Of a stretch of 64,000 nucleotides of DNA, positions 17 through 64,000 are shown piece after piece. The notes beneath the pieces were generated by a model. It was given only the letters and a program-made list of their open reading frames with translations, made no database searches and was not told where the DNA came from. Made by a program: the position numbers and the translations under genes. Source of the stretch: Candidatus Micrarchaeota archaeon. GTDB taxonomy: Archaea; Micrarchaeota; Micrarchaeia; Anstonellales; Bilamarchaeaceae. Every line of letters starts with the position of its first letter. The first letter of the stretch is position 1. The DNA lies in NCBI GenBank assembly GCA_038046805.1, contig JBBSVO010000006.1, positions 103,314 through 167,313 of the forward strand. The letters are read 5' to 3'.

Positions 17-2326
17 TCAGATGCGTTCCGTAACCGTTGCCCCAAATCCTTCTTTTTGTCTTGTTAATTTGTAGCTTGCAGCGAATTCTGAACCCATCAA
101 CCCTTCTTCATGTGTTATCACGATTGTTTGTCCGATAACCTCTGGAACTTTCAATTGCAGGGTCTGTGATAGCAGTTCAACTGCTTCTTTATCAAGATTA
201 TGTGTTGGTTCATCCAGAATAAGCATTCCAAGATTTGGGGTAAGTACGATAGAAAGCGCGATTCTCAGTGCAAGCGCAACACATGCACGTTCTCCTCCGC
301 TTGCGATTCCGTCCAGAGATTTCCAGGTTCCATTTCCATCCTGTATTTCGAATACATAATCTTTGTCTGTTGCAGTAATCCTAACTATGGTAATGTCGGC
401 GTATGGGTATATTATCCTCCAAATATTTCCAATCGCTGAGTTTATTGCCTCTATTAATTCAGTTCTTAATGCAATTTGGGTCTCCATTAAAGAATTTTTG
501 AAAATCGCCAGCTCCTCTTCGATCTGTCCAAGTCTTTTTTCCTCTTTCAGCGCCTTTTTTATGGCCCCAAGTTCTTTTCTCGTTGATTCAAGGAGTTCCG
601 CATGCGCTTTATTTTCTGTTACTAAATTCGTTCGTACGCCATTCAATCTCTCGACATTGACTTTTATTTCAGTTATCGCCGTTCTGAGCTCTTCGAACTT
701 TTTTTCATCAAATCCTATTATGGAAATGGATTCGATCAACTGCTCAAGTCTGGCCTTTGCATTTTCAGTTTCCATTTTCATCTTTAGAAGATTGACCGAA
801 TTATTTATCTGAATCGCAAACTGGTGCGCTTCCAGTGTAAGACCTTCCAAGAATGCCACAATTGAAGTTTTTCTCTCAGTTTCCGAAGTGATTCCAGTTG
901 CGATATTGTTTCGTTCCCCTGCAAGTGAACAGACATCCTCCTGCTGGCTTCTAAGTATCATCACCCTTTGCATGAGTGCATCTATGTCTTTTCCAAGAGT
1001 AGTTAATTGGTTGAGTTTTTTCTTTGATTCGATGAGTCGTATAGATGCACCGGAAATTTTGTTTTTTAGTTCCGCAATGCGCGCCCTTCTTTCATCAATC
1101 AAATGCGTTGCTTTATGCTCCTCAAGTCTGTTTCCGCATACCGGGCATTCCAACATTCCGGGTGCAAGTTGCATAGATATCTTTTCCACTTGCGTTATCT
1201 CAGTTTCTGCTGATTTTCTTTCAGTTTCCAGCGAGATTATCTCTTCTTCAAGAAGTTTTATTTCTGTCGCAACGGTTCCGTGCGGCTTTCCATCAAGAAG
1301 TGCAGTTATTTTTTCCTCAGTAATCTTAAGCTCAACCGCTCCTTTTTCCGAGCTTTTTATTTTGGTATCAAGAACTCCCGCGTTTTTTGAAAGTTTTGCG
1401 ATATTCGCGTCAATACCCTTCAGTTCTTCCCCGGCCTTTATTCTCTTTGCTTCTATCTCATCCCGTTTCTGCTTCATTTCAGAGAGTTTTTCCTCACTAA
1501 TGTCCTTTCCCTCAAGTTCCTTTGTCCATGTCGTAATGTATCCGTCGAGTTTTGTTTTTTCTTTGGAAAGTTCACCGGTTTGTTCCCGCTTCTTTGCCAG
1601 TTCTGTATATTCTGTATCTACTGTTTTTGATTTTTCCATGGCTTTTGAAAATTCTTCTTCTGTGCTTTGGAGTTTTTTCTTTGTTTCTTCAACCGCGATT
1701 GTCAATTCCTTTTCTTTATTTTCGAGTTCTGTAATTTCAAATGCTTTAATGTTCTTCGCAACTGCTTCACGTTCTGCTTTGATTCTGTTCATTAAGGTTA
1801 CTGAATTCGCTCTTGCATCCTCAAACTTGTCCAACCCAAGCAGGTTATCCATTTCTGCCTTTCTTTTCTTTGGTTCAACTGTAAGAAAATAATCTATGTT
1901 GTTCTGTTCGGAATAAACAGCTCTTGAAAACAAATCGAAACTGACCGAAAATAGCTGGCAGACGTAATTCGTTACGGATTTTGTTCCGCGTTCAATTAAT
2001 TTTCCATCCTTGGAAATACTGGCATCAGTATCTGCCCCGCCACTTTTCTTTTTTCGAAGTTCACGGGTAATTGTATATCTAATCCCGTTCCATTCAACAT
2101 CTGCTTTTACTAGCGCATCCTGTTCGTTTAATCGTATAATCTCCTCAAGGCTTGCCTTTCTTCTTTCAATCGCAGGGAATGTCCCGAACAATGCAAAACA
2201 TATCGCGTCAAGAATAGAAGATTTTCCGCTTCCCATTATTCCGATAAGAAGATTTGTTCCTTTTCTGAACTCAAGCGTTGTGTGCGAATGCGAACGCCAG
2301 TTTTTAAGTTCAAGAGAAAGAAGCAT
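17..2326 (-). CDS. rad50: Rad50 double-strand-break repair ATPase (SMC-like)
   Basis: 769 aa. Walker A GIMGSGKSS at the N-terminus, long charged coiled coil, central CPVC zinc hook, C-terminal signature SGGE and Walker B LILDEPT. Confidence 0.9.
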   Translation of the reverse strand: MLLSLELKNWRSHSHTTLEFRKGTNLLIGIMGSGKSSILDAICFALFGTFPAIERRKASLEEIIRLNEQDALVKADVEWNGIRYTITRELRKKKSGGADTDASISKDGKLIERGTKSVTNYVCQLFSVSFDLFSRAVYSEQNNIDYFLTVEPKKRKAEMDNLLGLDKFEDARANSVTLMNRIKAEREAVAKNIKAFEITELENKEKELTIAVEETKKKLQSTEEEFSKAMEKSKTVDTEYTELAKKREQTGELSKEKTKLDGYITTWTKELEGKDISEEKLSEMKQKRDEIEAKRIKAGEELKGIDANIAKLSKNAGVLDTKIKSSEKGAVELKITEEKITALLDGKPHGTVATEIKLLEEEIISLETERKSAETEITQVEKISMQLAPGMLECPVCGNRLEEHKATHLIDERRARIAELKNKISGASIRLIESKKKLNQLTTLGKDIDALMQRVMILRSQQEDVCSLAGERNNIATGITSETERKTSIVAFLEGLTLEAHQFAIQINNSVNLLKMKMETENAKARLEQLIESISIIGFDEKKFEELRTAITEIKVNVERLNGVRTNLVTENKAHAELLESTRKELGAIKKALKEEKRLGQIEEELAIFKNSLMETQIALRTELIEAINSAIGNIWRIIYPYADITIVRITATDKDYVFEIQDGNGTWKSLDGIASGGERACVALALRIALSIVLTPNLGMLILDEPTHNLDKEAVELLSQTLQLKVPEVIGQTIVITHEEGLMGSEFAASYKLTRQKEGFGATVTERI

Positions 2327-2484: not shown

Positions 2485-3693
2485 TTAGCTCCCATATTTC
2501 TTCCCCTTTCCAATCAAATTCAGAATTATCGGCATCATGTCTTTTCCTTCAACATGTCCAAGTCCGCCCTTCATGCAATTCTGCTCGTCAAACTGTGCGA
2601 CCTCGTCCTGCCGTTCATTCCCCCAAATAAGTATTGGCACTTCGTGGCCGCTGTGTCCGCGCCTTGCGCATGGAGTTGAATGATCCCCGGTAATAATAAG
2701 ATTTGCACCACTTTTTGCAAGCAATGGAATCAATTCCGCATCTATGCGTTCTATCATCTTTGTTTTTCCTTTCGGATCTCCATCGTGCCCGAAGCTATCG
2801 CATGCCTTTACATGCAAGAATATCATATCATTACTTCTAAGTGCAAGCACGGCTTCCTTCGCCTTTTCATGCAGGTTCGTATCCTTTGTTCCGGTTGCGC
2901 CATCTACGGTTACCAGTGTCATTCCGATATATTTCGCAACTCCCCGGTAAAGCGCCCCGCCAGCCACACATGCAGCAGTTATTCCAAATCTTTCTGCGAT
3001 TGGCTGGATTTTTTTGTAAGTTCCCGCACCGCGCAAAAGAATCGCATTTGCTTTTGGTTTTCCGCTTTTTTCCTGCTTTCGGTTCTCTTCATGGGCTTCA
3101 AGATGCTCTCTCGCGATTTTCGTGAATGCATTTACTACCCGCGCGGTCTTTTTCGCTTCTTTGCTTTCATCAAGTGGTTTTGATTCGGGCGAGTATCCGG
3201 TTTTTTGCGAGTCTGTTTCAGAAACATTTGCACTTAATCCGCTTCCGCGCAAAACAAGAACTCCTCTATGTTCAACAGAACTTTTGAATATGCACCGAAT
3301 ATCTTCTATGTCAAAATTAAGAGAACTTTCGAGTTTTTTGGAAATGGTTGTGTCAATTCTTCCGGCCCTTCTGTCTGTTATATTATTTCCCTGCGCAGTG
3401 GCAAAGTTTGCGCGAAATGCAACATCTCCTTCTTTCATTTGCACTCCGACGCCAAGTGCCTCAAGCGGTCCTCGTCCACAATAATATTTTTCTGGTTCAT
3501 ATCCTAAAATGGAAAGATGGCTCGTGTCGCTTCCAGGAACAATTCCCCGTTTTATAGTGCTTAACATCCCGGTTATTCCTTCCTTTGTCAGCCTATCCAA
3601 ATTCTTCTTTTTTGCAGTTTGGAGAGGGCTATTCGGAGTGAGATCTCCTAATCCATCTATTATAATCAGTATCGCCTTGTTGTTTGCACCCAT
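2485..3693 (-). CDS. apgM: 2,3-bisphosphoglycerate-independent phosphoglycerate mutase, archaeal ApgM type
   Basis: 402 aa. N-terminus AILIIIDGLGD...PLQTAKKKNLDRL, then GSDTSHLSILGYEP..YY.GRGPLEALG and C-terminal ITGDHSTP, as in the ApgM/metalloenzyme superfamily. Confidence 0.85.
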   Translation of the reverse strand: MGANNKAILIIIDGLGDLTPNSPLQTAKKKNLDRLTKEGITGMLSTIKRGIVPGSDTSHLSILGYEPEKYYCGRGPLEALGVGVQMKEGDVAFRANFATAQGNNITDRRAGRIDTTISKKLESSLNFDIEDIRCIFKSSVEHRGVLVLRGSGLSANVSETDSQKTGYSPESKPLDESKEAKKTARVVNAFTKIAREHLEAHEENRKQEKSGKPKANAILLRGAGTYKKIQPIAERFGITAACVAGGALYRGVAKYIGMTLVTVDGATGTKDTNLHEKAKEAVLALRSNDMIFLHVKACDSFGHDGDPKGKTKMIERIDAELIPLLAKSGANLIITGDHSTPCARRGHSGHEVPILIWGNERQDEVAQFDEQNCMKGGLGHVEGKDMMPIILNLIGKGKKYGS

Positions 3694-4902: not shown

Positions 4903-4927
4903 TGAGCCAACTAAAAAAGTTGGCTCA
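4903..4927 (+). terminator. Hairpin just downstream of ftsZ
   Basis: TGAGCCAAC-taaaaaa-GTTGGCTCA, a perfect 9-bp stem, preceded by T-rich sequence 35 nt after the ftsZ stop. Confidence 0.5.
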
Positions 4928-26725: not shown

Positions 26726-26842
26726 GGGCTCGTAGCTCAGAAGCAGAGCACTCGCCTTGCACGCGAGGGGCCGAGGGTGCGAGAGCTTTGAAATCACCGA
26801 TTTCAAAATTAGTCGGCAAAGCCGTCTATCCCTCCGAGTCCA
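26726..26842 (+). tRNA. tRNA-Ala (TGC) with a 45-nt T-loop intron
   Basis: GGGCTCG-TA-GCTC-AGAAGCA-GAGC-A-CTCGC-CTTGCAC-GCGAG-GGGCC-GAGGG-TGCGA[45 nt, 26783-26827]AT-CCCTC-CGAGTCC-A. G3:U70 alanine identity pair present. Anticodon at 26758-26760. Confidence 0.75.
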
Positions 26843-26948
26843 TTTTGAAGAAATGGACTGACTTGAACCGCAGTTCAAGCCGAAGTCCATTTTGAAGAAA
26901 TGGACTGACTTGAAAGATTCGTCTTTCAAGCTGAAGTCCAATTTTTTT
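26836..26948 (+). repeat. Tandem ~46-51 nt double-hairpin units that begin inside the tRNA-Ala 3' end
   Basis: GAGTCCATTTTGAAGAAATGGACTGACTTGAA occurs at 26836 and, as GAAGTCC..., at 26882. A third partial GAAGTCCA lies at 26933. Each unit folds as AGTCCATTT/AAATGGACT plus a CTTGAA.../...TTCAAG hairpin. Confidence 0.7.
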
Positions 26949-27576: not shown

Positions 27577-27828
27577 ATGCAAAACAACAAAGTAGGTGAG
27601 GCCATCTCTCTTTTGGATATGCTCTCAAATGAATCATCAATTCCAAAGAATATACGAAAAGCACTTTCAGATGCCAAACAAAGGCTTGAATCCAATGAAG
27701 AACTCAATGTTAAGGTCAGTGCTGCAGTTTATATTATAGATTCTATAAGCGATGATATCAACATGCCAGCTCATGCACGAACCCAGATATGGGGGGTTGT
27801 GAGCATGCTGGAATCCATGAAAGCATGA
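27577..27828 (+). CDS. UPF0147 family small protein
   Basis: Start moved to the ATG at 27577 (MQNNKVGEAISLLDML...IPKNIRKAL...DDINMPAHARTQIWGVVSMLE), which matches the conserved archaeal UPF0147 pattern. The upstream part of the track ORF overlaps the tRNA. Confidence 0.75.
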   Translation: MQNNKVGEAISLLDMLSNESSIPKNIRKALSDAKQRLESNEELNVKVSAAVYIIDSISDDINMPAHARTQIWGVVSMLESMKA

Positions 27829-27873
27829 TGAAATTTTTAAATTTCATCAATCATGAACGATTCGTCGTTCATG
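27827..27873 (+). terminator. Two consecutive hairpins after the UPF0147 gene
   Basis: GATGAAATTT/AAATTTCATC, then TCATGAACGA-TTCG-TCGTTCATG (a UUCG-type loop). Confidence 0.5.
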
Positions 27874-29452: not shown

Positions 29453-29552
29453 ACCGCGGTTCAAGGGCCTTGAAGTTTTTAATCCGTGGAATTCCACCGG
29501 TCTATTTGACCGGTGGTCACATCAGAAAACCTGGCGGTGGAATTCCCCAGCT

Positions 29553-35756: not shown

Positions 35757-38700
35757 ATGCGTGATTTTGAAACAACTGAAAAGATCGCAGTGCCGGAAAA
35801 GCTCATAGACCAGATCATAGGTCAAGATAAGGCAGTTGAAATAATAAAAAAAGCTGCAAAACAAAAGCGCAATGTCCTTCTCATAGGTCCGCCAGGTACA
35901 GGCAAAAGCATGCTCGCACAGGCAATGGCAGAGCTAATGCCTGCTGAAGAACTGGAGGATGTTCTTACTTATCCAAATCCAAATAATGAGAATCAGCCAC
36001 TTATCAAGGCAGTTAAAACTCATCCTTCACCAGATGAAATAGAAAAGAATAAGGAATACAAAATGCTGTTTCATCCAAAAGAGCTTTTGGATATGAAAAG
36101 AGGAACTACCGGGAAACCCATGCCTTTGATTGGTATGGGAAGAAGAATATTTCGCATGAGCCGAGCCATGGATGATCGCATGGCAGGTGGCGGTTCTAAC
36201 CTCTTCATGTTGATTCTGATTGGTATAATTCTTCTTGCAATAATTTTCTATCTTGATCTTGCAGAAAACATAAAATGGCTTCTTCTGGCGGGAATTTTCG
36301 GTATTGCATTTTTATATATCATTTCAAGTGCTACCCAGGGCTTAAGCCGCAGGTTTATGCCGACAGAAAATGCAAACCCGAAATTAATCATTGATAACAG
36401 CGAGAAATTTACTGCACCATTTATTGATGCTACGGGTGCAAAAGCCGGCGCGCTTCTCGGAGATTGTAAACACGATCCGTTGCAATGTTTTTTCCCATCA
36501 TCTACGACCTATATCGTTAAGGACGAGAAAATCCTTACAGTTGCTTTGAATGAACTTGTTGATAACTTGCTAGCAAAATACCCAGAATTAATTCAAAGAG
36601 ATGAAAAATATGAAGGGTTGATTCTCCCAAAAAACGAGGAGATTTACACTATTGGTTCATTGAACGCAAACACAATACCTGTACGTATTTTATGTGTAAA
36701 TAGAAGACTGCGCACAGGGAAGGTATCCATTGTTAAGACTGGTATCACTCGTTTATTAGTAACCCCGGAACACAAAATATTTTCCGGTGGAAATCTCATA
36801 GAAGCCGAAAAAATTAGGCCAAGTTCACAATTTTCTTTATATTTTAATCCAGTGATAACGAAGGATGACGTCATAAGGACATTTTCAGAACAAGACCAGG
36901 CAGATGCAGTTAACTATTATAAATTCGTAAAAATAAAAGAGTCAAATCCTCCTTTTGGATACAAGAAAATTGCCAAAATAATGGGGATAAAATCAGGACA
37001 GACCCGGTGGTGGAACAACAAAAAATGTAAACCAAAGGCAGTTCAGACAATAGAACGCCTTGAACATCTTGGTTTGCTTCCCTTCGGTGTTAATAATGCG
37101 GTAGCACCAATAGTTGCTAGAGTTTTAGGCACTACCTTTGGGGATGGAGGTATCTTTTCAACTCTCAATGGAATATTTTTATCTTCTTCTGAAGAAGATT
37201 CTCTTAATCAATACGCACAGGATTTAATCTCCATCTTCGGAACGTCTATAGAACATAATTTTGAGCGCCGAATCAGCGGTGTCAATAATACCGGAAGAGT
37301 TGTATGGAACACGAATCGCGATGTCGTTCGTTTCTTCATAGCTCTCGGAGCCCAGGTTGGAAGAAAGAACAAAAACGTTCGAATACCTTCGTGGATTAAT
37401 CTGAGCTCGGAAGTGCAGCAGGAATTTTTCGGAGCTTTTTTAGGGAATGAACTATGTAGTCCAAGATTCTCCAATGACCAGAACAAGATACAGTGTTTTT
37501 GTTTCGGACTTGCCGGAAGTCGTTCATTGGAACAAAATCGAAAAGAGATTTTATCTACTCTTGCCCATTATCTGAATTCTTATGGAATCCAAACCTCCCC
37601 AAACATAAATGAAAACGAATTCAAAAAAGGGAGATATATATGGAGACTGGGAATATCAACAGAAGTTGAGAACTTAATCCGATTTTACCAGCTTATTCCT
37701 ATTCGTTATTCAAATGCAAAGCTATTGAGAGTTCAGGATGCAATAGAACAGGTTTTGGAACGAAAAAAATCAAAATACAAAGACTTCCTACGCATCGGAA
37801 AGAGTGAAAAATATGTTTTGGCCACTCTTCGCGTTTCGGGAAACACACTTCAAAAGATTATTTCGAATGAAAAGTTGGTTTTTGATTCTTCATCTGTGCA
37901 ATTTTCCGGTTATGTCTATAACATAACAACCGAGTCTGGCAATCTTTTCGCAAATGGAATCCTTGCAAGCAATTCGGGAGGTCTCGGCACCCCCCCTCAT
38001 CTCCGTGTCGAATCAGGCGCAGTCCACCGTGCGAACAAAGGGGTTCTTTTCATTGACGAAATCGCATCTCTTAAATGGCACTGGCAGCAGGAACTTCTGA
38101 CTGCAATGCAGGAAAAGAAATATCCAATAACCGGGCAGAGTGAAATGAGCTCCGGAGCTCTTGTTAAAACAGAATCCGTTCCTAGCGATTTTGTTCTAGT
38201 TGCTGCAGGAAATTTACCTGATCTTCAACAGATTCATCCAGCGCTTCGTTCGCGTATAAGAGGTGCCGGCTATGAAGTTTATGTTGAAGACAGCATGGAC
38301 GATACTCCTGAAAATGAAGACGGGCTTATTCAGTTTATAGCTCAGGAGGTCAAGAAAGACGGGAGGATCCCCCACTTTAATCGGGATGCAGTTATTGAAA
38401 TCATTGAGGAAGCGCGGCGCATGTCTGGTCGAAAAAAGAAATTCACCCTGAATCTAAGAGAGCTCGGTGGACTTGTACGTGCCACCGGAGATATTGCGCG
38501 TGAGCGGGGCTCCCGGTTTGTCGAACGCGAACACGTGGCTCTTGCAAAAAAGGTTTTCAGTTCTATAGAAGGCCAGCTCGGAAAGAAATTCGTAGAGCGA
38601 AAAAAGGATTATGAAACATTCATGCATGAGGGTTCTGCAGTTGGAAGGGTAAATGGCCTTGCAGTGCTCGGAGAATCCTCTTCTGGTCTTGTTCTTCCAA

Positions 38701-39254
38701 TTGTTGCTGAAGTTACGCCTGCTTCATCAAAAAGCGAGGGAAAGGTTTTTGCAACAGGAAAGCTTGGAACAATTGCCAAAGAAGCAGTTGAAAACGTTTC
38801 GGCTATCGTAAAAAAGACAATGGGAACGGATATATCAAAAAGCGATATTCACATACAATTCCTTCAAACATACGAGGGCGTGGAAGGAGACAGTGCTTCC
38901 ATTTCCATCGCAGTTTCGGTAATCTCCGCGATGACAGGAATTCCAGTAAAGCAGGATTATGCTCTTACTGGTTCTGTCGACGTACGTGGGGATGTTCTTC
39001 CTGTTGGTGGTGTCACGGCAAAGACCGAGGCCGCAATAGAAACAGGCCTCAAATATGTGCTGGTTCCGAAAATGAATTTTGAGGATATCATTCTTTCGCC
39101 GGATAAAAAAGGAAAAGCAGAAATAATTCCGGTTGCGAATATAATGGAGGTTCTCAGGCATGTTCTTGTTGATTGTCCAGAGAAGGTGAAACTGCTTGAA
39201 TCGATGAAAGCTGGTGGAAACGTCAAATCAAAACAAGGAAAGAAGAGAAGATGA
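35757..39254 (+). CDS. lonB: Archaeal membrane-anchored Lon protease (LonB), interrupted by an intein
   Basis: 1165 aa. Walker A GPPGTGKS, two TM helices, AAA+ Walker B VLFIDEI after the insert, and a C-terminal protease domain with Ser in GDSASISIAVS. The exteins sum to 669 aa, a normal LonB size. Confidence 0.9.
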   Translation: MRDFETTEKIAVPEKLIDQIIGQDKAVEIIKKAAKQKRNVLLIGPPGTGKSMLAQAMAELMPAEELEDVLTYPNPNNENQPLIKAVKTHPSPDEIEKNKEYKMLFHPKELLDMKRGTTGKPMPLIGMGRRIFRMSRAMDDRMAGGGSNLFMLILIGIILLAIIFYLDLAENIKWLLLAGIFGIAFLYIISSATQGLSRRFMPTENANPKLIIDNSEKFTAPFIDATGAKAGALLGDCKHDPLQCFFPSSTTYIVKDEKILTVALNELVDNLLAKYPELIQRDEKYEGLILPKNEEIYTIGSLNANTIPVRILCVNRRLRTGKVSIVKTGITRLLVTPEHKIFSGGNLIEAEKIRPSSQFSLYFNPVITKDDVIRTFSEQDQADAVNYYKFVKIKESNPPFGYKKIAKIMGIKSGQTRWWNNKKCKPKAVQTIERLEHLGLLPFGVNNAVAPIVARVLGTTFGDGGIFSTLNGIFLSSSEEDSLNQYAQDLISIFGTSIEHNFERRISGVNNTGRVVWNTNRDVVRFFIALGAQVGRKNKNVRIPSWINLSSEVQQEFFGAFLGNELCSPRFSNDQNKIQCFCFGLAGSRSLEQNRKEILSTLAHYLNSYGIQTSPNINENEFKKGRYIWRLGISTEVENLIRFYQLIPIRYSNAKLLRVQDAIEQVLERKKSKYKDFLRIGKSEKYVLATLRVSGNTLQKIISNEKLVFDSSSVQFSGYVYNITTESGNLFANGILASNSGGLGTPPHLRVESGAVHRANKGVLFIDEIASLKWHWQQELLTAMQEKKYPITGQSEMSSGALVKTESVPSDFVLVAAGNLPDLQQIHPALRSRIRGAGYEVYVEDSMDDTPENEDGLIQFIAQEVKKDGRIPHFNRDAVIEIIEEARRMSGRKKKFTLNLRELGGLVRATGDIARERGSRFVEREHVALAKKVFSSIEGQLGKKFVERKKDYETFMHEGSAVGRVNGLAVLGESSSGLVLPIVAEVTPASSKSEGKVFATGKLGTIAKEAVENVSAIVKKTMGTDISKSDIHIQFLQTYEGVEGDSASISIAVSVISAMTGIPVKQDYALTGSVDVRGDVLPVGGVTAKTEAAIETGLKYVLVPKMNFEDIILSPDKKGKAEIIPVANIMEVLRHVLVDCPEKVKLLESMKAGGNVKSKQGKKRR
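36486..37973 (+). mobile_element. Intein (496 aa) with LAGLIDADG homing-endonuclease domain in LonB
   Basis: The insert begins with Cys (DPLQ|CFFPSS) and ends ...NGILASN|S, the canonical C1 ... HN/SN+Ser junctions. Internal LAGLIDADG-like blocks VLGTTFGDGG and FFGAFLGNE. Confidence 0.85.
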
Positions 39255-50111: not shown

Positions 50112-50135
50112 TCATGAACGGTTCGCCGTTCATGA
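50112..50135 (+). terminator. UUCG-loop hairpin after the 545-aa gene
   Basis: TCATGAACGG-TTCG-CCGTTCATGA, followed by a second hairpin GAGACAG.../...TTGTCTC. Confidence 0.5.
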
Positions 50136-59689: not shown

Positions 59690-60034
59690 TTGCATAATCT
59701 ACTGCGGTTGGTGTTTACACAAATGTTGCTTGAAATCTTCATTGGCACGATAATCATCGCACTTGCGCTTTACTCAATCTGGAAGTTAACCGAGTCGCCC
59801 ATCTCATTCAATAATAATATCTCTCGCGGTAAAAACACCTTGAACATTGAGGCAAAGAGGGACATAGATTATTTGGTTATTCTGGATAAAATCGGAAAAG
59901 CGCAGCATATTTCATTTGTCCGCAGGAACATAAAGAACGGAGAAACACTGGAATTCACTTATCCAGCATCGTCCCATACTGCAAAAATAGTTCTTGAATG
60001 CAAAAACAAAACTTATGAATTCGAGGTTATTTAA
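59690..60034 (+). CDS. Hypothetical small membrane-anchored protein
   Basis: 114 aa, with a single N-terminal helix LLEIFIGTIIIALALYSIW. Confidence 0.45.
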   Translation: MHNLLRLVFTQMLLEIFIGTIIIALALYSIWKLTESPISFNNNISRGKNTLNIEAKRDIDYLVILDKIGKAQHISFVRRNIKNGETLEFTYPASSHTAKIVLECKNKTYEFEVI

Positions 60035-61143
60035 TGGCTGAGAGCAAAGGAAATGCCAAAATGCCAATTTTGCTTTACCGTGGGGAGCATTTTGATTCAA
60101 ATTTTTTCTATTCTTCCGGAGTTGATCTAGACCACTCATTTTTTCTTTCAAATCCCCGGGTTCTTTTTGTTCCGAAGCTTAATTTCACGCTTGCCAGAAG
60201 ATTGTTTTCCGGACGGGTTATCGCTTATTCGAATGTTTCCGAGGTTTTAGGAAAGTTTATACGGAAAAAACAAATCAGAATGCTCGGAACAGACTTCCGT
60301 TCTCTTCCGGTTTCGGCTTATAAAAAACTGTCAAAACTAGCGCGTTTGAAGGACTATTCCGAGCAGTTTTTGCTCGTTCGCGCTAAAAAGCGGAAAAACG
60401 AAATATCAAAAATACGAAAAGCAGTTCAATTTTCAAAAAAGATTTTCTCAGAATTGGAATCTCGGATCCATCATATGAAGACCGAAAGCGACGTGCGCAG
60501 CTTTCTTCTCACCCGCACGCTTGAACTGGGTTTAGAACCTGCATTTGAACCCATTACTGCAAGCGGCTCAAATTCGAGATTCCCACATTACCAGTCCGGG
60601 AATAATGCGAAGTTGCACGATATGGTTTTGGTGGATTATGGCGTGCGATACGAACATTATTGCAGCGATTTAACCAGGTGTTTTTTCCTTAAGCACGGTA
60701 CAAAAGCAGAGAAAACCTATTTGGTTATGCAGGAAATGTTCGCGGATATTATAGATAATTTCCCAGATTTCGTCTCAGGAAAAGATCTCGCGGTTTTCAC
60801 TGAAAAATTATACGCGAAGCATAGTCTTCCACTCCCGCCGCATTCAATAGGTCATGGGATCGGACTTGATGTTCATGAATACCCCCGACTAAGCAAAAGA
60901 TACAAAGATCTGCTCGTTGGAACAACGATGGCGATTGAACCGTCTGCTTATTTCAATTCATTTGAAAAACGCAGCTTGCGGAAACCCTGCACTTCAGTGC
61001 TGGGAGGAGCGTTTTTCAAAAGCTTTGCTCTTCGGCCCTTGAAACCGCTGCCTTTAGGTTGCGGTGGCCGAATGAGCAAATCATTCGGGGTCAGGTTTGA
61101 GGAAACAATTGAATTCAACGGAAAAAAGGCGAAGGTTTTATAA
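60034..61143 (+). CDS. M24-family Xaa-Pro aminopeptidase/prolidase-like, carrying a 41-codon insertion
   Basis: 369 aa. Metal-ligand region HSIGHGIGLDVHEYP, then MAIEPSAYFNS[41 aa]FGVRFEETIEF. Without the insert the EP...GVR.E spacing is canonical. Confidence 0.8.
   Translation: MAESKGNAKMPILLYRGEHFDSNFFYSSGVDLDHSFFLSNPRVLFVPKLNFTLARRLFSGRVIAYSNVSEVLGKFIRKKQIRMLGTDFRSLPVSAYKKLSKLARLKDYSEQFLLVRAKKRKNEISKIRKAVQFSKKIFSELESRIHHMKTESDVRSFLLTRTLELGLEPAFEPITASGSNSRFPHYQSGNNAKLHDMVLVDYGVRYEHYCSDLTRCFFLKHGTKAEKTYLVMQEMFADIIDNFPDFVSGKDLAVFTEKLYAKHSLPLPPHSIGHGIGLDVHEYPRLSKRYKDLLVGTTMAIEPSAYFNSFEKRSLRKPCTSVLGGAFFKSFALRPLKPLPLGCGGRMSKSFGVRFEETIEFNGKKAKVL
60958..61080 (+). other. In-frame 123-nt double-hairpin insertion (MITE-like element or BHB-type intron candidate)
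   Basis: Flanked by direct TCATT (60958-60962 and 61081-85). Hairpin 1 is TTTGAAAAACGC (60961-72) / GCGTTTTTCAAA (61009-20), perfect 12 bp. Hairpin 2 is TTTGCTCTTCGGCC (61024-37) / GGCCGAATGAGCAAA (61066-80). Confidence 0.6.
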
Positions 61144-61175: not shown

Positions 61176-61226
61176 GCAGGGATAGCAATCCGCTTGAACT
61201 GATGTTCAAATCTTGTCATCCCTGCT
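61176..61226 (+). pseudogene. tRNA-Leu fragment (5' 13 nt plus 3' ~22 nt of the adjacent gene)
   Basis: GCAGGGATAGCAA...GTTCAAATCTTG-TCA-TCCCTGC matches both ends of the intact tRNA-Leu 39 nt downstream. D-arm, anticodon arm and variable arm are missing. Confidence 0.7.
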
Positions 61227-61264: not shown

Positions 61265-61388
61265 TGCAGGGATAGCAAAGCCTGGTCAAATGCGCAGGAC
61301 TTAAGGAGCCTTTTGACTTCTAAGTAGGTCTGTGGTTTCGGAAATCCTGTCGCTTAGTGCGTTCGCAAGTTCAAATCTTGCTCCCTGC
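61265..61388 (+). tRNA. tRNA-Leu (TAA) with canonical 37/38 intron (38 nt)
   Basis: GCAGGGA-TA-GCA...TGC-G-CAGGA-CTTAAG[61305-61342]A-TCCTG, variable arm, then GCAAG-TTCAAAT-CTTGC-TCCCTGC-A. Anticodon at 61301-61303. Mature length 86 nt. Confidence 0.85.
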
Positions 61389-61580
61389 ATTTTGTTTTCA
61401 TCTGAGTTCTTCGGGTTTTTCGTGAGGAAATACCTCATGAACTACCTTCCGTCAGTGAAGGTTCTGACGTAAGATCTATTTAAGCCCTGGCCTGAGGCGA
61501 GTTAGACGATTGCCTAATTAATAGTAGTCCAACGAGTCATGGTGCTTATTTTTAAATCCTTTGAACACTAATATACTTCA

Positions 61581-63187
61581 ATGCACACAACTATGTCTAG
61601 ATCAAGAGAACATAGAGCCGACCATGCAGGTAACACCAGCCATAAACAATTTGTCAGACCAAATCCAATGTTGTCGTTTTATCAAGACCCAGAAAATCCA
61701 AACTGGACTTATTTTGGAACAGGTTCTGCAGGTGCAAAAGCAGACTGGCTTTATGATAAAAGTCCGATTATAAGAGCTAATGGTTTTATCGAAGATCCAA
61801 GAACTGTTCTTAGAATGGGTTTGTTCGAAGATCATAGAAACAGAAATGGTTTAGACCGAGCGATTAGAAACCCAGAGATCTTAGGGCACTTAGGAATCTT
61901 ACACTCAACAGTCCTTTTAACAAAAGGGAAGTTGAAGTTCTAGAGTATATCCTAGATCGTATTCCAGAAAAAACCCCCATGGTCGTGCGTTCATCGGCCC
62001 ATGGAGACGCTGCGGGAACTGGATTTTACGATAGTGTTTTTTATATGAAAACTGGAAATAAAAAAACAGACTTAGCAAATCTCGAACTAGCAATAAAAAC
62101 CGTTCTTGCAAGTGAATTTTCACAAAGAGCTTATGCTTTTAGACAAAAAAGAGAGTTAGATCATGGCGTTGCAGTCATGATCGAACCCGCTTTTGTACGA
62201 GATGTGACCCAAGAAGTTGTTGAAACAAATCACCTACGTGAATTGGATAAGGGTACGTACCTTTCACCTGATATTTCTGGTTTTGCATATACAAGTACAG
62301 AAACTGGCCGGGGGTTTGCCGGGGTTGTACTTGGTTTGCCAACTTCTGCAGTAGCGGGCAAGGGCGCAGTAATAACTATCAGACATTCTGATAACGACAG
62401 CTTATTTGGTCGTGTACCTTGGGATACGCTACCACGATTTCAAGATTTAGTAGATCAGGCAGTCGTCTTTGATACTAGAAATGGCCAGTTAAGCGCTGCT
62501 GGGTTTTATACAGAAACAGCGCATTATGAGTTAGACAAATTATTTGGACCATTACTTGGTCTAGAACGAGATATTGGAGAACCGATTTATGCTGAATGGG
62601 CTTTGAGACGAATAAAGGGGCAGGTAGAACGAGCGATTTTGCAAATTTCGGGAGTTTCTAGATCTGATTATTCTGTAGTTTTTCCAGCAGATCCCAAAAA
62701 TATTTTTGCAAGTGCAGAATTTGTTCTGAGAAGCGGATGTGAAGATTGTCAGGGTATATTCTTCTTACCTGATACTGTTTCGGCCAGACAACTTGCAGAA
62801 TTTAATAAAACCCACAAAGGATATGTACTAGTGGCAGATTACAAATTCTTTTCAGATGTACGTGGTCAGCATGATTATCTTGCACCAAGAGTTAATGTTT
62901 TGAGGGATTTCCATTTAGACTATGGCCAATTTGATAATACATCTGCAATTCTTGTATGCGGTCCACCTGAAGCAAAAAATTCCGTAAAGGGACACTTCGA
63001 AGGTGCCTTAAAAGAAGCACAAGTTGTTGGCGGATTTAATATCGGTATGGTTGACTACGTACGTGAACGTCTTGCTTCATTGATGGGTTTGGAAAGAGAA
63101 GGACTTGACGGTAAGAATTTTGTTAATGGAAATATTCGGGCAATTGCAAGTGCGAAAGAACAGAAAATGTTACTTATTTTAGGTTAA
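61581..63187 (+). pseudogene. PEP/pyruvate-binding (PPDK_N, ATP-grasp type) domain protein, frame broken once near 61868-61880
   Basis: The downstream ORF has the VVRSSAHGDAAGTGFYDS motif. Its frame is open back to 61868 and reads ...LEYILDRIPEKTPMVVRSSA. The upstream ORF (61581-61943) supplies the N-terminal part in another frame. Confidence 0.6.
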
Positions 63188-63465
63188 TTTAACCGTTAAA
63201 TTTGTTTATCATAAATCTTGCAAATTTTCAACTTTTTCTCATTCGATAAGCTTAGTTTTTGCTCGAACTTCTTCGAGAATATATAAAGGGATGGCGAGTT
63301 CCATACCCTTGAAGCGTATCTCTTGCGAGTTCAACATCTGAAAGGCTACATTTTTCTGTTTTTCAAGTATGACAATTCTCCATACTTCAAACGATCCGGG
63401 CGTTAATTCGCTTGAGTTCACTCAGAAACTCGTGCAGAAGTATATTGATACCAAAGCCGTAAAAG

Positions 63466-63850
63466 TTCGTGTACATGATTTCGTTAATTCTATTCGTGCA
63501 CACGGTTTTTTGACCCTTAAAACTTCGTGTGTTTCGCCTATTTTCAAGTTATAAACAAGCACACGAAAATCACACGAACTTAGGCGATCTGGAATCCACA
63601 ACACGCAAGAAACGGCGTTCTGGCGCATATATTGGTGTGTGTGAGTGCTGAGTGAAAGCATGAGCACACGATCAAACACACGACTTCAAATGAATTAAGG
63701 CGTAGAACACACGAAGTCGCTAGTTTTTCCGTTCCTTGATGGAGAGAGTGAGAAAGAAAGAGAGTTAACACCTATTCTTGCATTATAAGCAAACACACGA
63801 AAAACACTCGACTTCGCTCGGATTAAGCGTTAGAACATACGAAATCAAGC
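63466..63850. repeat. Iteron-like field of CACACGA heptamers
   Basis: Exact CACACGA at 63560, 63571, 63665, 63677, 63708 and 63794, with an inverted copy at 63525-63531, plus one-mismatch variants. Two ~45-60-nt longer units (63674-63720 and 63791-63850) are related. Confidence 0.75.
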
Positions 63851-64000
63851 GAATTGGCTACACTGAATAGATAGAGAGATAAAACTAGAAAAACGTTTTA
63901 TCCAATCCTTTCTCAACTATTTTCTTGAGAAGCAAATTCTTGACTTCTTCGTCTTCAATAAGGATATTCATTAGTTCATTTGGTTTCTTGTTCGGATCAA

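Follow-up and report, generated by a model that had tools for sequence, protein, structure and literature searches.

The palindrome-associated transposable elements (PATEs) described in the haloarchaea Haloquadratum and Natronomonas have ends of the IS605 type: palindromes lie close to either terminus, terminal inverted repeats are absent, no target duplication is made, the 5' flank supplies a targeting sequence of 4-6 nt, the element ends in an oligonucleotide that is conserved, and small mobile repeats often invade it (PMC3119063). In elements of Geobacillus the flank motif is the transposon-adjacent motif (TAM) and the end motif the transposon-encoded motif (TEM), and omega RNAs are noted as a frequent product of PATEs (PMC10055086). 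Rickettsia palindromic elements (RPEs) insert in frame into many genes (summarized in PMC10969869), and PMC10085805, where it cites Paquin et al., speaks of the double-hairpin elements (DHEs) of fungal mitochondria as suspected to be mobile, the enzyme not being known. Here we analyze a 64-kb stretch of DNA (64,000 nucleotides, called the window below) from contig JBBSVO010000006.1 of a Candidatus Micrarchaeota archaeon, in which a gene for a peptidase of family M24 is split in frame by a 123-nt insert that folds into two hairpins. This insert, which we call element O, is very probably a copy of a repeated, relocating element. The genomes of DPANN archaea are tiny and are usually thought to be poor in mobile DNA; in the literature searched we found no such repeats described in Micrarchaeota or DPANN, and O is a previously undescribed, conserved, hairpin-ended family of Micrarchaeota.

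Our best reading, by analogy, is that O would be a non-autonomous, hairpin-ended mobile element of the IS200/IS605 type, most like the PATEs. It is too short to encode a protein, lacks terminal inverted repeats and has a hairpin at each end; TCAT on its 5' flank resembles a targeting sequence or TAM, and its conserved 3' oligonucleotide a TEM. The interiors of O are heterogeneous, and smaller repeats appear to insert into it, as they do into PATEs. O differs from PATEs in that no TnpA/TnpB partner was identified, very few copies were seen, its sequence resembles no described element, and its hosts are DPANN archaea. With the RPEs it shares a palindromic repeat of ~100-150 bp that lies in frame in a conserved, housekeeping-type enzyme gene and would yield a peptide compatible with the fold; the open reading frame (ORF) is kept (41 codons, no stop, downstream motif intact) and the element is repeated. 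However, RPEs occupy dozens of genes per genome and conserve a peptide, whereas O has one known genic copy and conserves a nucleic-acid structure; moreover, the organisms are unrelated and the sequences dissimilar. The fungal DHEs (PMC10085805) are likewise two adjacent hairpins richer in G+C than their A+T-rich genome, mostly intergenic and occasionally genic, but they are mitochondrial and shorter and have no sequence similarity to O.

An in-frame insert in a conserved M24 motif

The host protein matches Peptidase_M24 (PF00557, E = 3.7e-37) and also Creatinase_N (PF01321), and these matches, five predicted metal ligands (D, D, H, E, E) and a model with the pita-bread fold all fit peptidase family M24. 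By sequence its nearest solved structures are the prolidases 1wy2 and 1pv9, the Pyrococcus and Thermotoga prolidases being its best solved relatives, and its nearest homologues carry the annotation Candidatus Micrarchaeota or Micrarchaeia. Orthologues were aligned in a set of 12 sequences and then in one of 114, in which D201, D212, H274, E302 and E356 are invariant; the window protein keeps all five. An earlier note on this DNA, made from the sequence alone, had reported an M24 motif split by 123 nt, a multiple of three with no stop codon. The split is indeed there (...IEPSAYFNSF / GVRFEET), and the larger alignment sets it apart from all relatives: F307 and G352 are separated by 44 residues in the window protein and the corresponding spacing is 3-4 residues in 113/113 aligned orthologues, none of which has the insert. 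The closest of these insert-free orthologues is ~80% identical over the aligned residues. G352, R354 and E356, on the 3' side of the insert, are intact.

Since the 369-aa, insert-bearing product recurs on several independent contigs, among them L003, L004 and L025, and also stands as NCBI record MEK6979372.1 (a protein from a metagenome-assembled genome, MAG), the insert is no assembly artefact. L003 is a 197.5-kb contig in the European Nucleotide Archive (ENA) from Hainich groundwater that is identical to the window (window coordinate = L003 coordinate + 50033). No insert-free, intact M24 gene was found in a close strain within the 90% cluster, as 3/3 members carry the element; these are the full protein, a form encoded on contig L001 (see below) and an N-terminally shortened gene call.

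The features of the locus are collected in Table 1. In the M24 gene the boundaries of O are ambiguous by 4-5 nt, and the coordinates that we use are equivalent to the 60958-61080 of the earlier note; removal of the 123 nt restores ...YFNSF-GVRFEE... with a single TCAT. Our folds agree with the two hairpins described there, both starting TTTG and ending CAAA, with stems of 12 bp (perfect) and 14 bp (one bulge). The internal loop of hairpin 1 holds conserved CGGAAAC and GGAGGAG, and hairpin 2 has the 3' strand GGCCGAATGAGCAAATCAT, a 19-mer shared without change by every copy that was recovered with it. Folded as DNA the insert has z = -5.7, a value equalled by 0/200 shuffles, and as RNA with its flanks z = -3.0. 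The insert is also richer in G+C than the remaining gene, as had been noted (0.512 vs 0.415). Its 41 codons contain no in-frame stop, which shuffled inserts achieve with a chance of 0.14; the element is open in 1/3 forward phases, giving about a one-in-three chance of a stop-free landing.

The two ends of O share ATTTG/CAAAT only (5 bp); beyond this common hairpin foot the left end is not the reverse complement of the right and there are no terminal inverted repeats. The distance between TCAT and either hairpin foot is 0-1 nt. Direct TCATT repeats, spaced 123 nt, do stand at 60958-60962 and 61081-61085, but their earlier interpretation as a 5-bp target duplication fares less well: other copies of O share TCAT only, on both sides and throughout the family, and the fifth T is specific to the M24 site. 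With TCAT serving as both flank motif and end motif, a 4-bp duplication of a specific target is indistinguishable from insertion without duplication, in which the left TCAT would be a target motif of IS605 type and the right one an end motif encoded by O. A longer target duplication (CTCTA, at the copy in L022) was considered and dropped, being absent at other copies. A classical miniature inverted-repeat transposable element does not fit either, given that terminal inverted repeats do not extend beyond 5 bp and that the flanking repeat is TCAT at every site rather than variable. Separately, we observed an 8-bp perfect stem (CCGAATGA/TCATTCGG, 61068-61088) that spans the right junction, from element into M24 sequence; 4/8 bp (ATGA/TCAT) are internal to every O copy and the other four are site-specific.

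Known families and extrachromosomal sequences offered no counterpart to O. Rfam 15 gave no match even at permissive thresholds (E up to 10), the best scores (10-20 bits, against thresholds of 50-100) being miRNA, H/ACA-type two-hairpin noise and HgcC (18 bits). Viral contigs had 0 matches to the right-end 19-mer and 0 to a window-specific right-end 20-mer, phage and plasmid collections had no blastn match to the long form of O described below, and GTDB genomes had 0 matches to the exact left-end 21-mer.

Table 1. Positions of element O, its host gene and the features discussed in the text (window coordinates unless a contig is named).
Feature	Coordinates	Strand	Description	Basis
M24 Xaa-Pro peptidase (prolidase-like) ORF	60034-61143	+	369 aa including the insert	Pfam match
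Left TCAT	60958-60961	+	target motif of the gene (AAT TCA T|TC GGG before insertion)	precedes the other copies
Element O, short form	60962-61084	+	inserted 123-nt element, TTG...CAAATCAT	covariance model R1 and sister copy
Hairpin 1	60961-61020	+	12-bp perfect foot TTTGAAAAACGC/GCGTTTTTCAAA, internal loop, apical 8-bp stem	fold
Hairpin 2	61024-61080	+	14-bp foot with one bulged T, then apical stem-loop	fold
Right TCAT	61081-61084	+	terminal tetranucleotide of O or second target copy	closes every copy regardless of flank
Sister copy of O, long form	L003 15264-15435		4339 nt downstream, 1.3 kb past the window end	sequence comparison
tRNA-like remnant	61176-61225		40 nt upstream of tRNA-Leu; without anticodon arm	
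tRNA-Leu(UAA)	61266-61389	+	long variable arm; 38-nt canonical bulge-helix-bulge intron (61306-61343)	Rfam tRNA, 45.9 bits
3.8-kb integrated element, left part	61379-64000		at tRNA-Leu 3' end; continues to L003 15261 (window-equivalent 65294)	
attL	61379-61420		at tRNA-Leu 3' end	direct repeat
ORFs of the integrated element	61581-61943; 61979-63187		120 and 402 aa	
Tyrosine integrase gene	from 63885	-	runs past the window end	Pfam PF00589
Mini-hairpins, window	26787-26930; 27826-27873; 50112-50135; 2388-2409; 4903-4927; 29494-29516			
Mini-hairpins, other loci	L022 2067-2231, 4193-4293; L017 6226-6307; L019 2595-2675, 5086-5135			

A longer sister copy on the same contig

A comparison of L003 with L001, a 2531-nt ENA contig (Hain_H51), revealed that L003 10925-11051 (window 60958-61084) matches a second stretch of L003. 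The two copies have the same orientation. They are identical over 70/70 nt and then, at the end, over 63/66 nt (95%), and because they differ at only 3/127 positions the insertion into the M24 gene looks recent. Both are preceded by TCAT and end in TCAT, and their outer flanks are unrelated. Between hairpins 1 and 2 the sister copy has 45 extra nt, made up of two perfect 21-nt hairpins (TTTGACGCG-CTT-CGCGTCAAA and TTTGACATC-ATG-GATGTCAAA), and it folds with z = -7.7. Searches with 12-mers and blastn-short found no further O copies in the 64-kb window.

L001 joins the 5' part of the M24 gene to a long O, followed by MNT/HEPN genes, and omits all DNA between the two copies, including the tRNA-Leu gene and the integrase element described below. 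Its M24 is truncated, giving a product 99% identical but shorter. The contig has a coverage of 2 and is almost identical to the window strain: its left part (946 nt) has 1 single-nucleotide polymorphism and its right part (1316 nt) none. Two origins would account for it, recombination that deleted the DNA between the direct O copies, or a jump by the assembler where the copies are identical for 70 nt. Placed in the M24 frame, the long form runs into a TGA stop, as in the L001 product, whereas the short form is open. We considered that the gene copy might have lost the 45 nt under selection for removal of the stop, but such a loss is unneeded, as the family is built on the two-hairpin form (see below); more probably, the sister copy gained two mini-hairpins.

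A family of homologues in other Micrarchaeota

Full-length homologues of O with the same ends are present in at least five other Micrarchaeota genomes. Among GTDB species representatives the right-end 19-mer has exact matches on four contigs of three Micrarchaeota MAGs, namely Bilamarchaeaceae SMAG_U8037 (two contigs), co387_57 and Modern_marine.mb.254, and seven JGI metagenome contigs that contain it carry O as well; four further matches (Peptococcus, Puia, one metagenome contig) look like chance. Every archaeal match to the 19-mer belongs to a complete two-hairpin unit, (T/C)CAT-TTG...CAAA-TCAT, and similarity ends exactly there. Seven copies have a readable left end, and their left flank is TCAT (6/7) or CCAT (1/7); the right end is ...GAGCAAATCAT in all copies.

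From five distinct copies RNAalifold predicts 38 pairs, and compensatory double changes occur in 11 of them. Across the five genomes these lie in the foot and apical stem of hairpin 1 and in the apical stem of hairpin 2; the foot of hairpin 1, for example, varies as GAAAAACGC, GAAAAATGCA and GAAATTCGGTGC, each with a matching partner. Conservation of sequence itself is found in the 3' strand of hairpin 2 and in the internal-loop motifs of hairpin 1, CGGAWAC and GGAGGAR. A covariance model built from the five-copy alignment (R1) scores the window unit with both TCATs (60958-61084) at 142.9 bits over its full length and the homologues at 98-129 bits (positions 1-126), and it found no other O copies in 235 kb of sequence.

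The genomes that carry O are far apart, with AMP phosphorylases only 65% identical between L017 and L019, and the element sits in a different place in each. It lies upstream of RadA in L022, separates an IF-2B-like isomerase gene from the AMP phosphorylase gene in L019, and stands ahead of a 420-aa ORF in L024. Two copies have neighbors on the opposite strand: in L021 O fills the space from the AbiEii gene to the RNase T gene, and in L017 it abuts the TGA stop codon of AMP phosphorylase. The IF-2B-like and AMP phosphorylase genes have only 9 nt between them in L017, so this junction is empty in L017 and occupied in L019. Together with the M24 gene (113 orthologues empty), this makes two comparisons of occupied and empty sites. 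From these aligned copies O is shown to be a discrete unit with constant boundaries (TCAT | TTG ... CAAATCAT), whose stems are kept by compensatory changes and which occupies a different place in each genome.

The 420-aa ORF of L024 appears to start at an ATG within the conserved right end of O (1686-1802, minus strand), where GAATGAGCAAATCAT would be read as M-S-K-S; a hydrophobic, signal-like stretch comes next. In the M24 insert this ATG is in frame too (M347).

Nested and free-standing mini-hairpins

SMAG_U8037 holds both a clean copy of O (L022 2657-2783) and an interrupted one (L019 5155-5530, minus strand), which has the sequence of the L022 copy broken at five sites by about ten hairpins of 20-28 nt; L014 is similar. 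The 45 extra nt of the sister copy in our contig are two mini-hairpins of this kind. As mini-hairpins interrupt some copies while others are clean, the two-hairpin form found in the M24 gene is the basic architecture of O. Just before the interrupted L019 copy we also noticed a solo GAGCAAATCAT, a right-end fragment of O.

Each mini-hairpin has a perfect stem of 9-12 bp, a loop of 3-5 nt and feet such as CATGAACG...CGTTCATG or TTTGAAA...TTTCAAA, all related as xTGAA[A/C]...[G/T]TTCAx; the CATGAACG...CGTTCATG type is common to distant Micrarchaeota. Perfect mini-hairpins also occur outside O, alone or in tandem in intergenic gaps, and the window contains 15 where ~6 are expected. They could be elements like repetitive extragenic palindromes, terminators or tiny mobile palindromes.

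Predicted consequence for the enzyme

AlphaFold2, run with the 114-sequence alignment, models the M24 fold with a mean predicted local distance difference test score (pLDDT) of 90.4, and the model superposes on the prolidases 2zsg, 1wy2 and 4zng with TM-scores of ~0.8. Residues ~310-350, between the strands at 304-307 and 351-354, have a pLDDT of 46-57. E302 and E356 align with two prolidase glutamates that we take, from the published Pyrococcus prolidase structures, to be metal ligands. In the model the insert is thus at the turn of the beta-hairpin that links E302 and E356, about five residues from each ligand, and it is probably translated as a disordered 41-residue loop between the two glutamates. 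The tolerated loop that the earlier note had offered as an explanation therefore seems right as the probable outcome at the protein level, as predicted by AlphaFold2, and wrong as an account of where the insert came from. Since the insertion looks recent and had about a one-in-three chance of an open phase, the intact ORF is no proof of function. Candidate peptides of the insert or its junctions include SLRKPCTSVLGGAFFK and PLPLGCGGR.

The neighboring tRNA gene and integrated element

On the 3' side of the M24 gene follow a tRNA-like remnant, tRNA-Leu(UAA), two ORFs and a tyrosine integrase gene. ARAGORN reports 0 tRNAs in the 64-kb window, missing the intron-bearing tRNA-Leu that the Rfam model detects. 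The first 13 nt of the remnant (GCAGGGATAGCAA) are those of tRNA-Leu; its acceptor stem is perfect over 7 bp (GCAGGGA/TCCCTGC), its GTTCAAATCTTG resembles a T arm, and a TTGAAC/GTTCAA hairpin lies inside. The remnant is probably the scar of an earlier integration or recombination at tRNA-Leu. In L002, which carries the closest insert-free relative of the M24 gene (~80% identical), we observed a tRNA-Leu (3339-3376) that is encoded on the other strand and runs toward the M24 stop codon, so that the M24-tRNA neighborhood is conserved but inverted.

Repeats of the tRNA 3' end around a segment with an integrase are the usual signature of an integrase element in a tRNA gene. Here, repeats made of the tRNA 3' end and ~30 nt more are found at L003 11346-11387 and 15162-15203 (82% identical), and an extra tRNA-3' remnant at L003 15242-15261 is followed by TATATTTTTTG and then by the sister copy of O. 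This arrangement implies that, before integration, the sister copy lay ~11 nt after tRNA-Leu, ~0.45 kb from the M24 site. Two Logan contigs from two other samples (L006, L007) assemble the integrated segment separately, ending 10 nt inside the tRNA at one side and 30 nt inside O at the other.

Origin of the insert

Taken as a whole, and with read-through translation included, the following explanation is the best one that we can offer, and on balance we think it probable. O would have moved, or been copied, as a unit to the TCAT in the M24 gene. The likeliest route would be the single-strand, hairpin-recognizing 'peel-and-paste' transposition of IS200/IS605 elements and PATEs, with the enzyme supplied in trans; that O moves by a mechanism of this kind is an analogy that we find plausible without quite calling it probable. 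Being a multiple of three in length and free of stops in the phase of its landing, the unit would be read through by the ribosome, which would add 41 residues, as a disordered loop at the turn of the E302-E356 beta-hairpin. Direct O repeats could also drive deletion of the DNA between them. The earlier note had counted a miniature palindromic element inserted in frame among its explanations, and the sister copy 4.3 kb away and the homologues in other Micrarchaeota bear this out; a peptide insertion conserved among orthologues, with no other copies of the DNA, is clearly not what we find.

Several observations weigh against this explanation. No TnpA/TnpB or other transposase was found in ~85 kb of this contig (annotated parts of the window, and L003) or in ~50 kb around the other copies, and those ~85 kb contain only two copies of O. 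A six-frame peptide query against 5.8 billion proteins, which is insensitive to diverged copies, returned only the cluster of the M24 protein itself. The hairpins of O abut its termini, whereas IS605-type elements, which carry a guide tetranucleotide 5' of the hairpin foot, have a spacer between cleavage site and hairpin, longer on the left. Template switching between TCAT microhomologies, without any transposase, would give the same sequence for two copies so close together. Finally, unpaired nucleotides that are conserved in hairpin 1, and a 3' strand of hairpin 2 that does not vary between distant genomes, resemble a functional RNA or a protein-binding site more than they do junk DNA.

These last points lead to an alternative that we consider unlikely, yet worth weighing with care: O may serve mainly as a structured RNA or as a module that binds protein, for instance a terminator, a stability element, a small regulatory RNA or an omega-RNA-like scaffold, kept by purifying selection and occasionally duplicated. 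No dedicated transposition would then be involved: the M24 copy would be a local accident, with the sister copy, ~0.45 kb downstream until the integrase element came in, as the source for template switching or gene conversion between TCAT microhomologies. The closeness and shared orientation of the two local copies suit this idea, as do the low copy number, the lack of a visible transposase, the omega RNAs reported for PATEs (PMC10055086), and the conservation of the hairpin 2 strand and CGGAWAC/GGAGGAR, with covarying stems, between genomes at ~65% protein identity. On the other hand, O finds no Rfam family, its stems are nearly all Watson-Crick with few G-U pairs, as is typical of palindromes at the DNA level, and the unit that is conserved is also the unit that is inserted. 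Its position differs in every genome, sometimes antisense to both neighbors, and one genome has a clean copy beside a copy riddled by about ten small hairpin insertions. It is a longer shot that O is both, a mobile structured-RNA module kept by function across the Micrarchaeota and not merely selfish DNA. If that were true, O could be a stand-alone, omega-RNA-like guide scaffold for a TnpB-type nuclease encoded elsewhere; alternatively, it could be an RNA that leaves host transcripts by a route other than bulge-helix-bulge (BHB) splicing and so sits harmlessly in genes. The 21-25-nt hairpins nested in O and present in intergenic gaps would then be a second, smaller class of archaeal mobile palindromes.

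Archaeal BHB introns, in tRNAs and in the crenarchaeal cbf5 mRNA that provides the precedent, can be likened to O as structured inserts in conserved genes of a lineage with a permissive splicing endonuclease, and the earlier note had listed an endonuclease-processed mRNA intron among its possible explanations; the 123 nt would then be cut from the M24 mRNA and the exons joined by a ligase. The epsilon-2 endonuclease of Micrarchaeota (ARMAN-2) does accept non-canonical substrates (PMC3239211, PMC12397907), the insert is strongly structured, and the adjacent tRNA-Leu has an intron. We scored all junction pairs for a BHB (a 4-bp helix between two 3-nt bulges, cut after the second bulge base). The tRNA-Leu intron, our control, was the top match (H 3/4, h 6, h' 4), but the ten registers around TCATT that remove exactly 123 nt contain no BHB (best H 2/4, h 0, h' 6), higher-scoring junctions remove 140 or 144 nt and would cause a frame shift or a stop codon, and the two extra hairpins of the sister copy have no BHB either. 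Introns, moreover, need neither a length that is a multiple of three nor an open frame, whereas the M24 copy has both and the sister form has a stop. Since O is also found in six other, intergenic contexts, in some of them antisense to its neighbors, the mRNA intron is unsupported and we hold it to be highly improbable. Nearly as improbable is that the O copies are attachment sites of a composite integrative element with 4.3 kb of cargo, the insert being its attL. L001 lacks exactly the DNA between the two copies, and the integrase gene starts ~200 nt from the downstream one; however, we rejected O as the integrase attachment site, because the integrase element is bounded by repeats of its own, made of the tRNA-Leu 3' end, and these do not enclose O. 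The M24 flanks of the gene copy are contiguous in all orthologues, so the 3' end of the gene is native and not cargo, O elsewhere is not next to integrases, and L001, with its coverage of 2, can be explained by a recombination deletion or an assembler jump. To a peptide loop that arose inside the protein in this lineage alone, unrelated to any repeated DNA, we give practically no weight. Its site at a surface turn and a fold otherwise predicted to be unaffected would suit it, but the nearest insert-free orthologue is ~80% identical, the DNA is nearly the same as that of an intergenic element, the hairpin potential of the insert is extreme, and the existence of a second copy and a family already refutes it.

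Implications

If the mobile-element explanation is right, small hairpin-ended repeats exist and move in DPANN archaea, and the M24 gene provides an archaeal example of a palindromic element absorbed as an extra peptide in a conserved enzyme, between two metal ligands. O is now a defined sequence family with a working covariance model and can be counted across Micrarchaeota genomes, while its strong conservation across genera raises the question of a functional RNA. For annotation, an odd 41-residue insert has an explanation, and repeat-mediated deletion or misassembly can be flagged at this locus.

Elsewhere in the window, the ORF of a LonB-type protease (35757-39254, 1165 aa) is about twice the usual length and has extra Pfam matches of AAA/MCM/Mg-chelatase type; it might contain an intein or a fusion.

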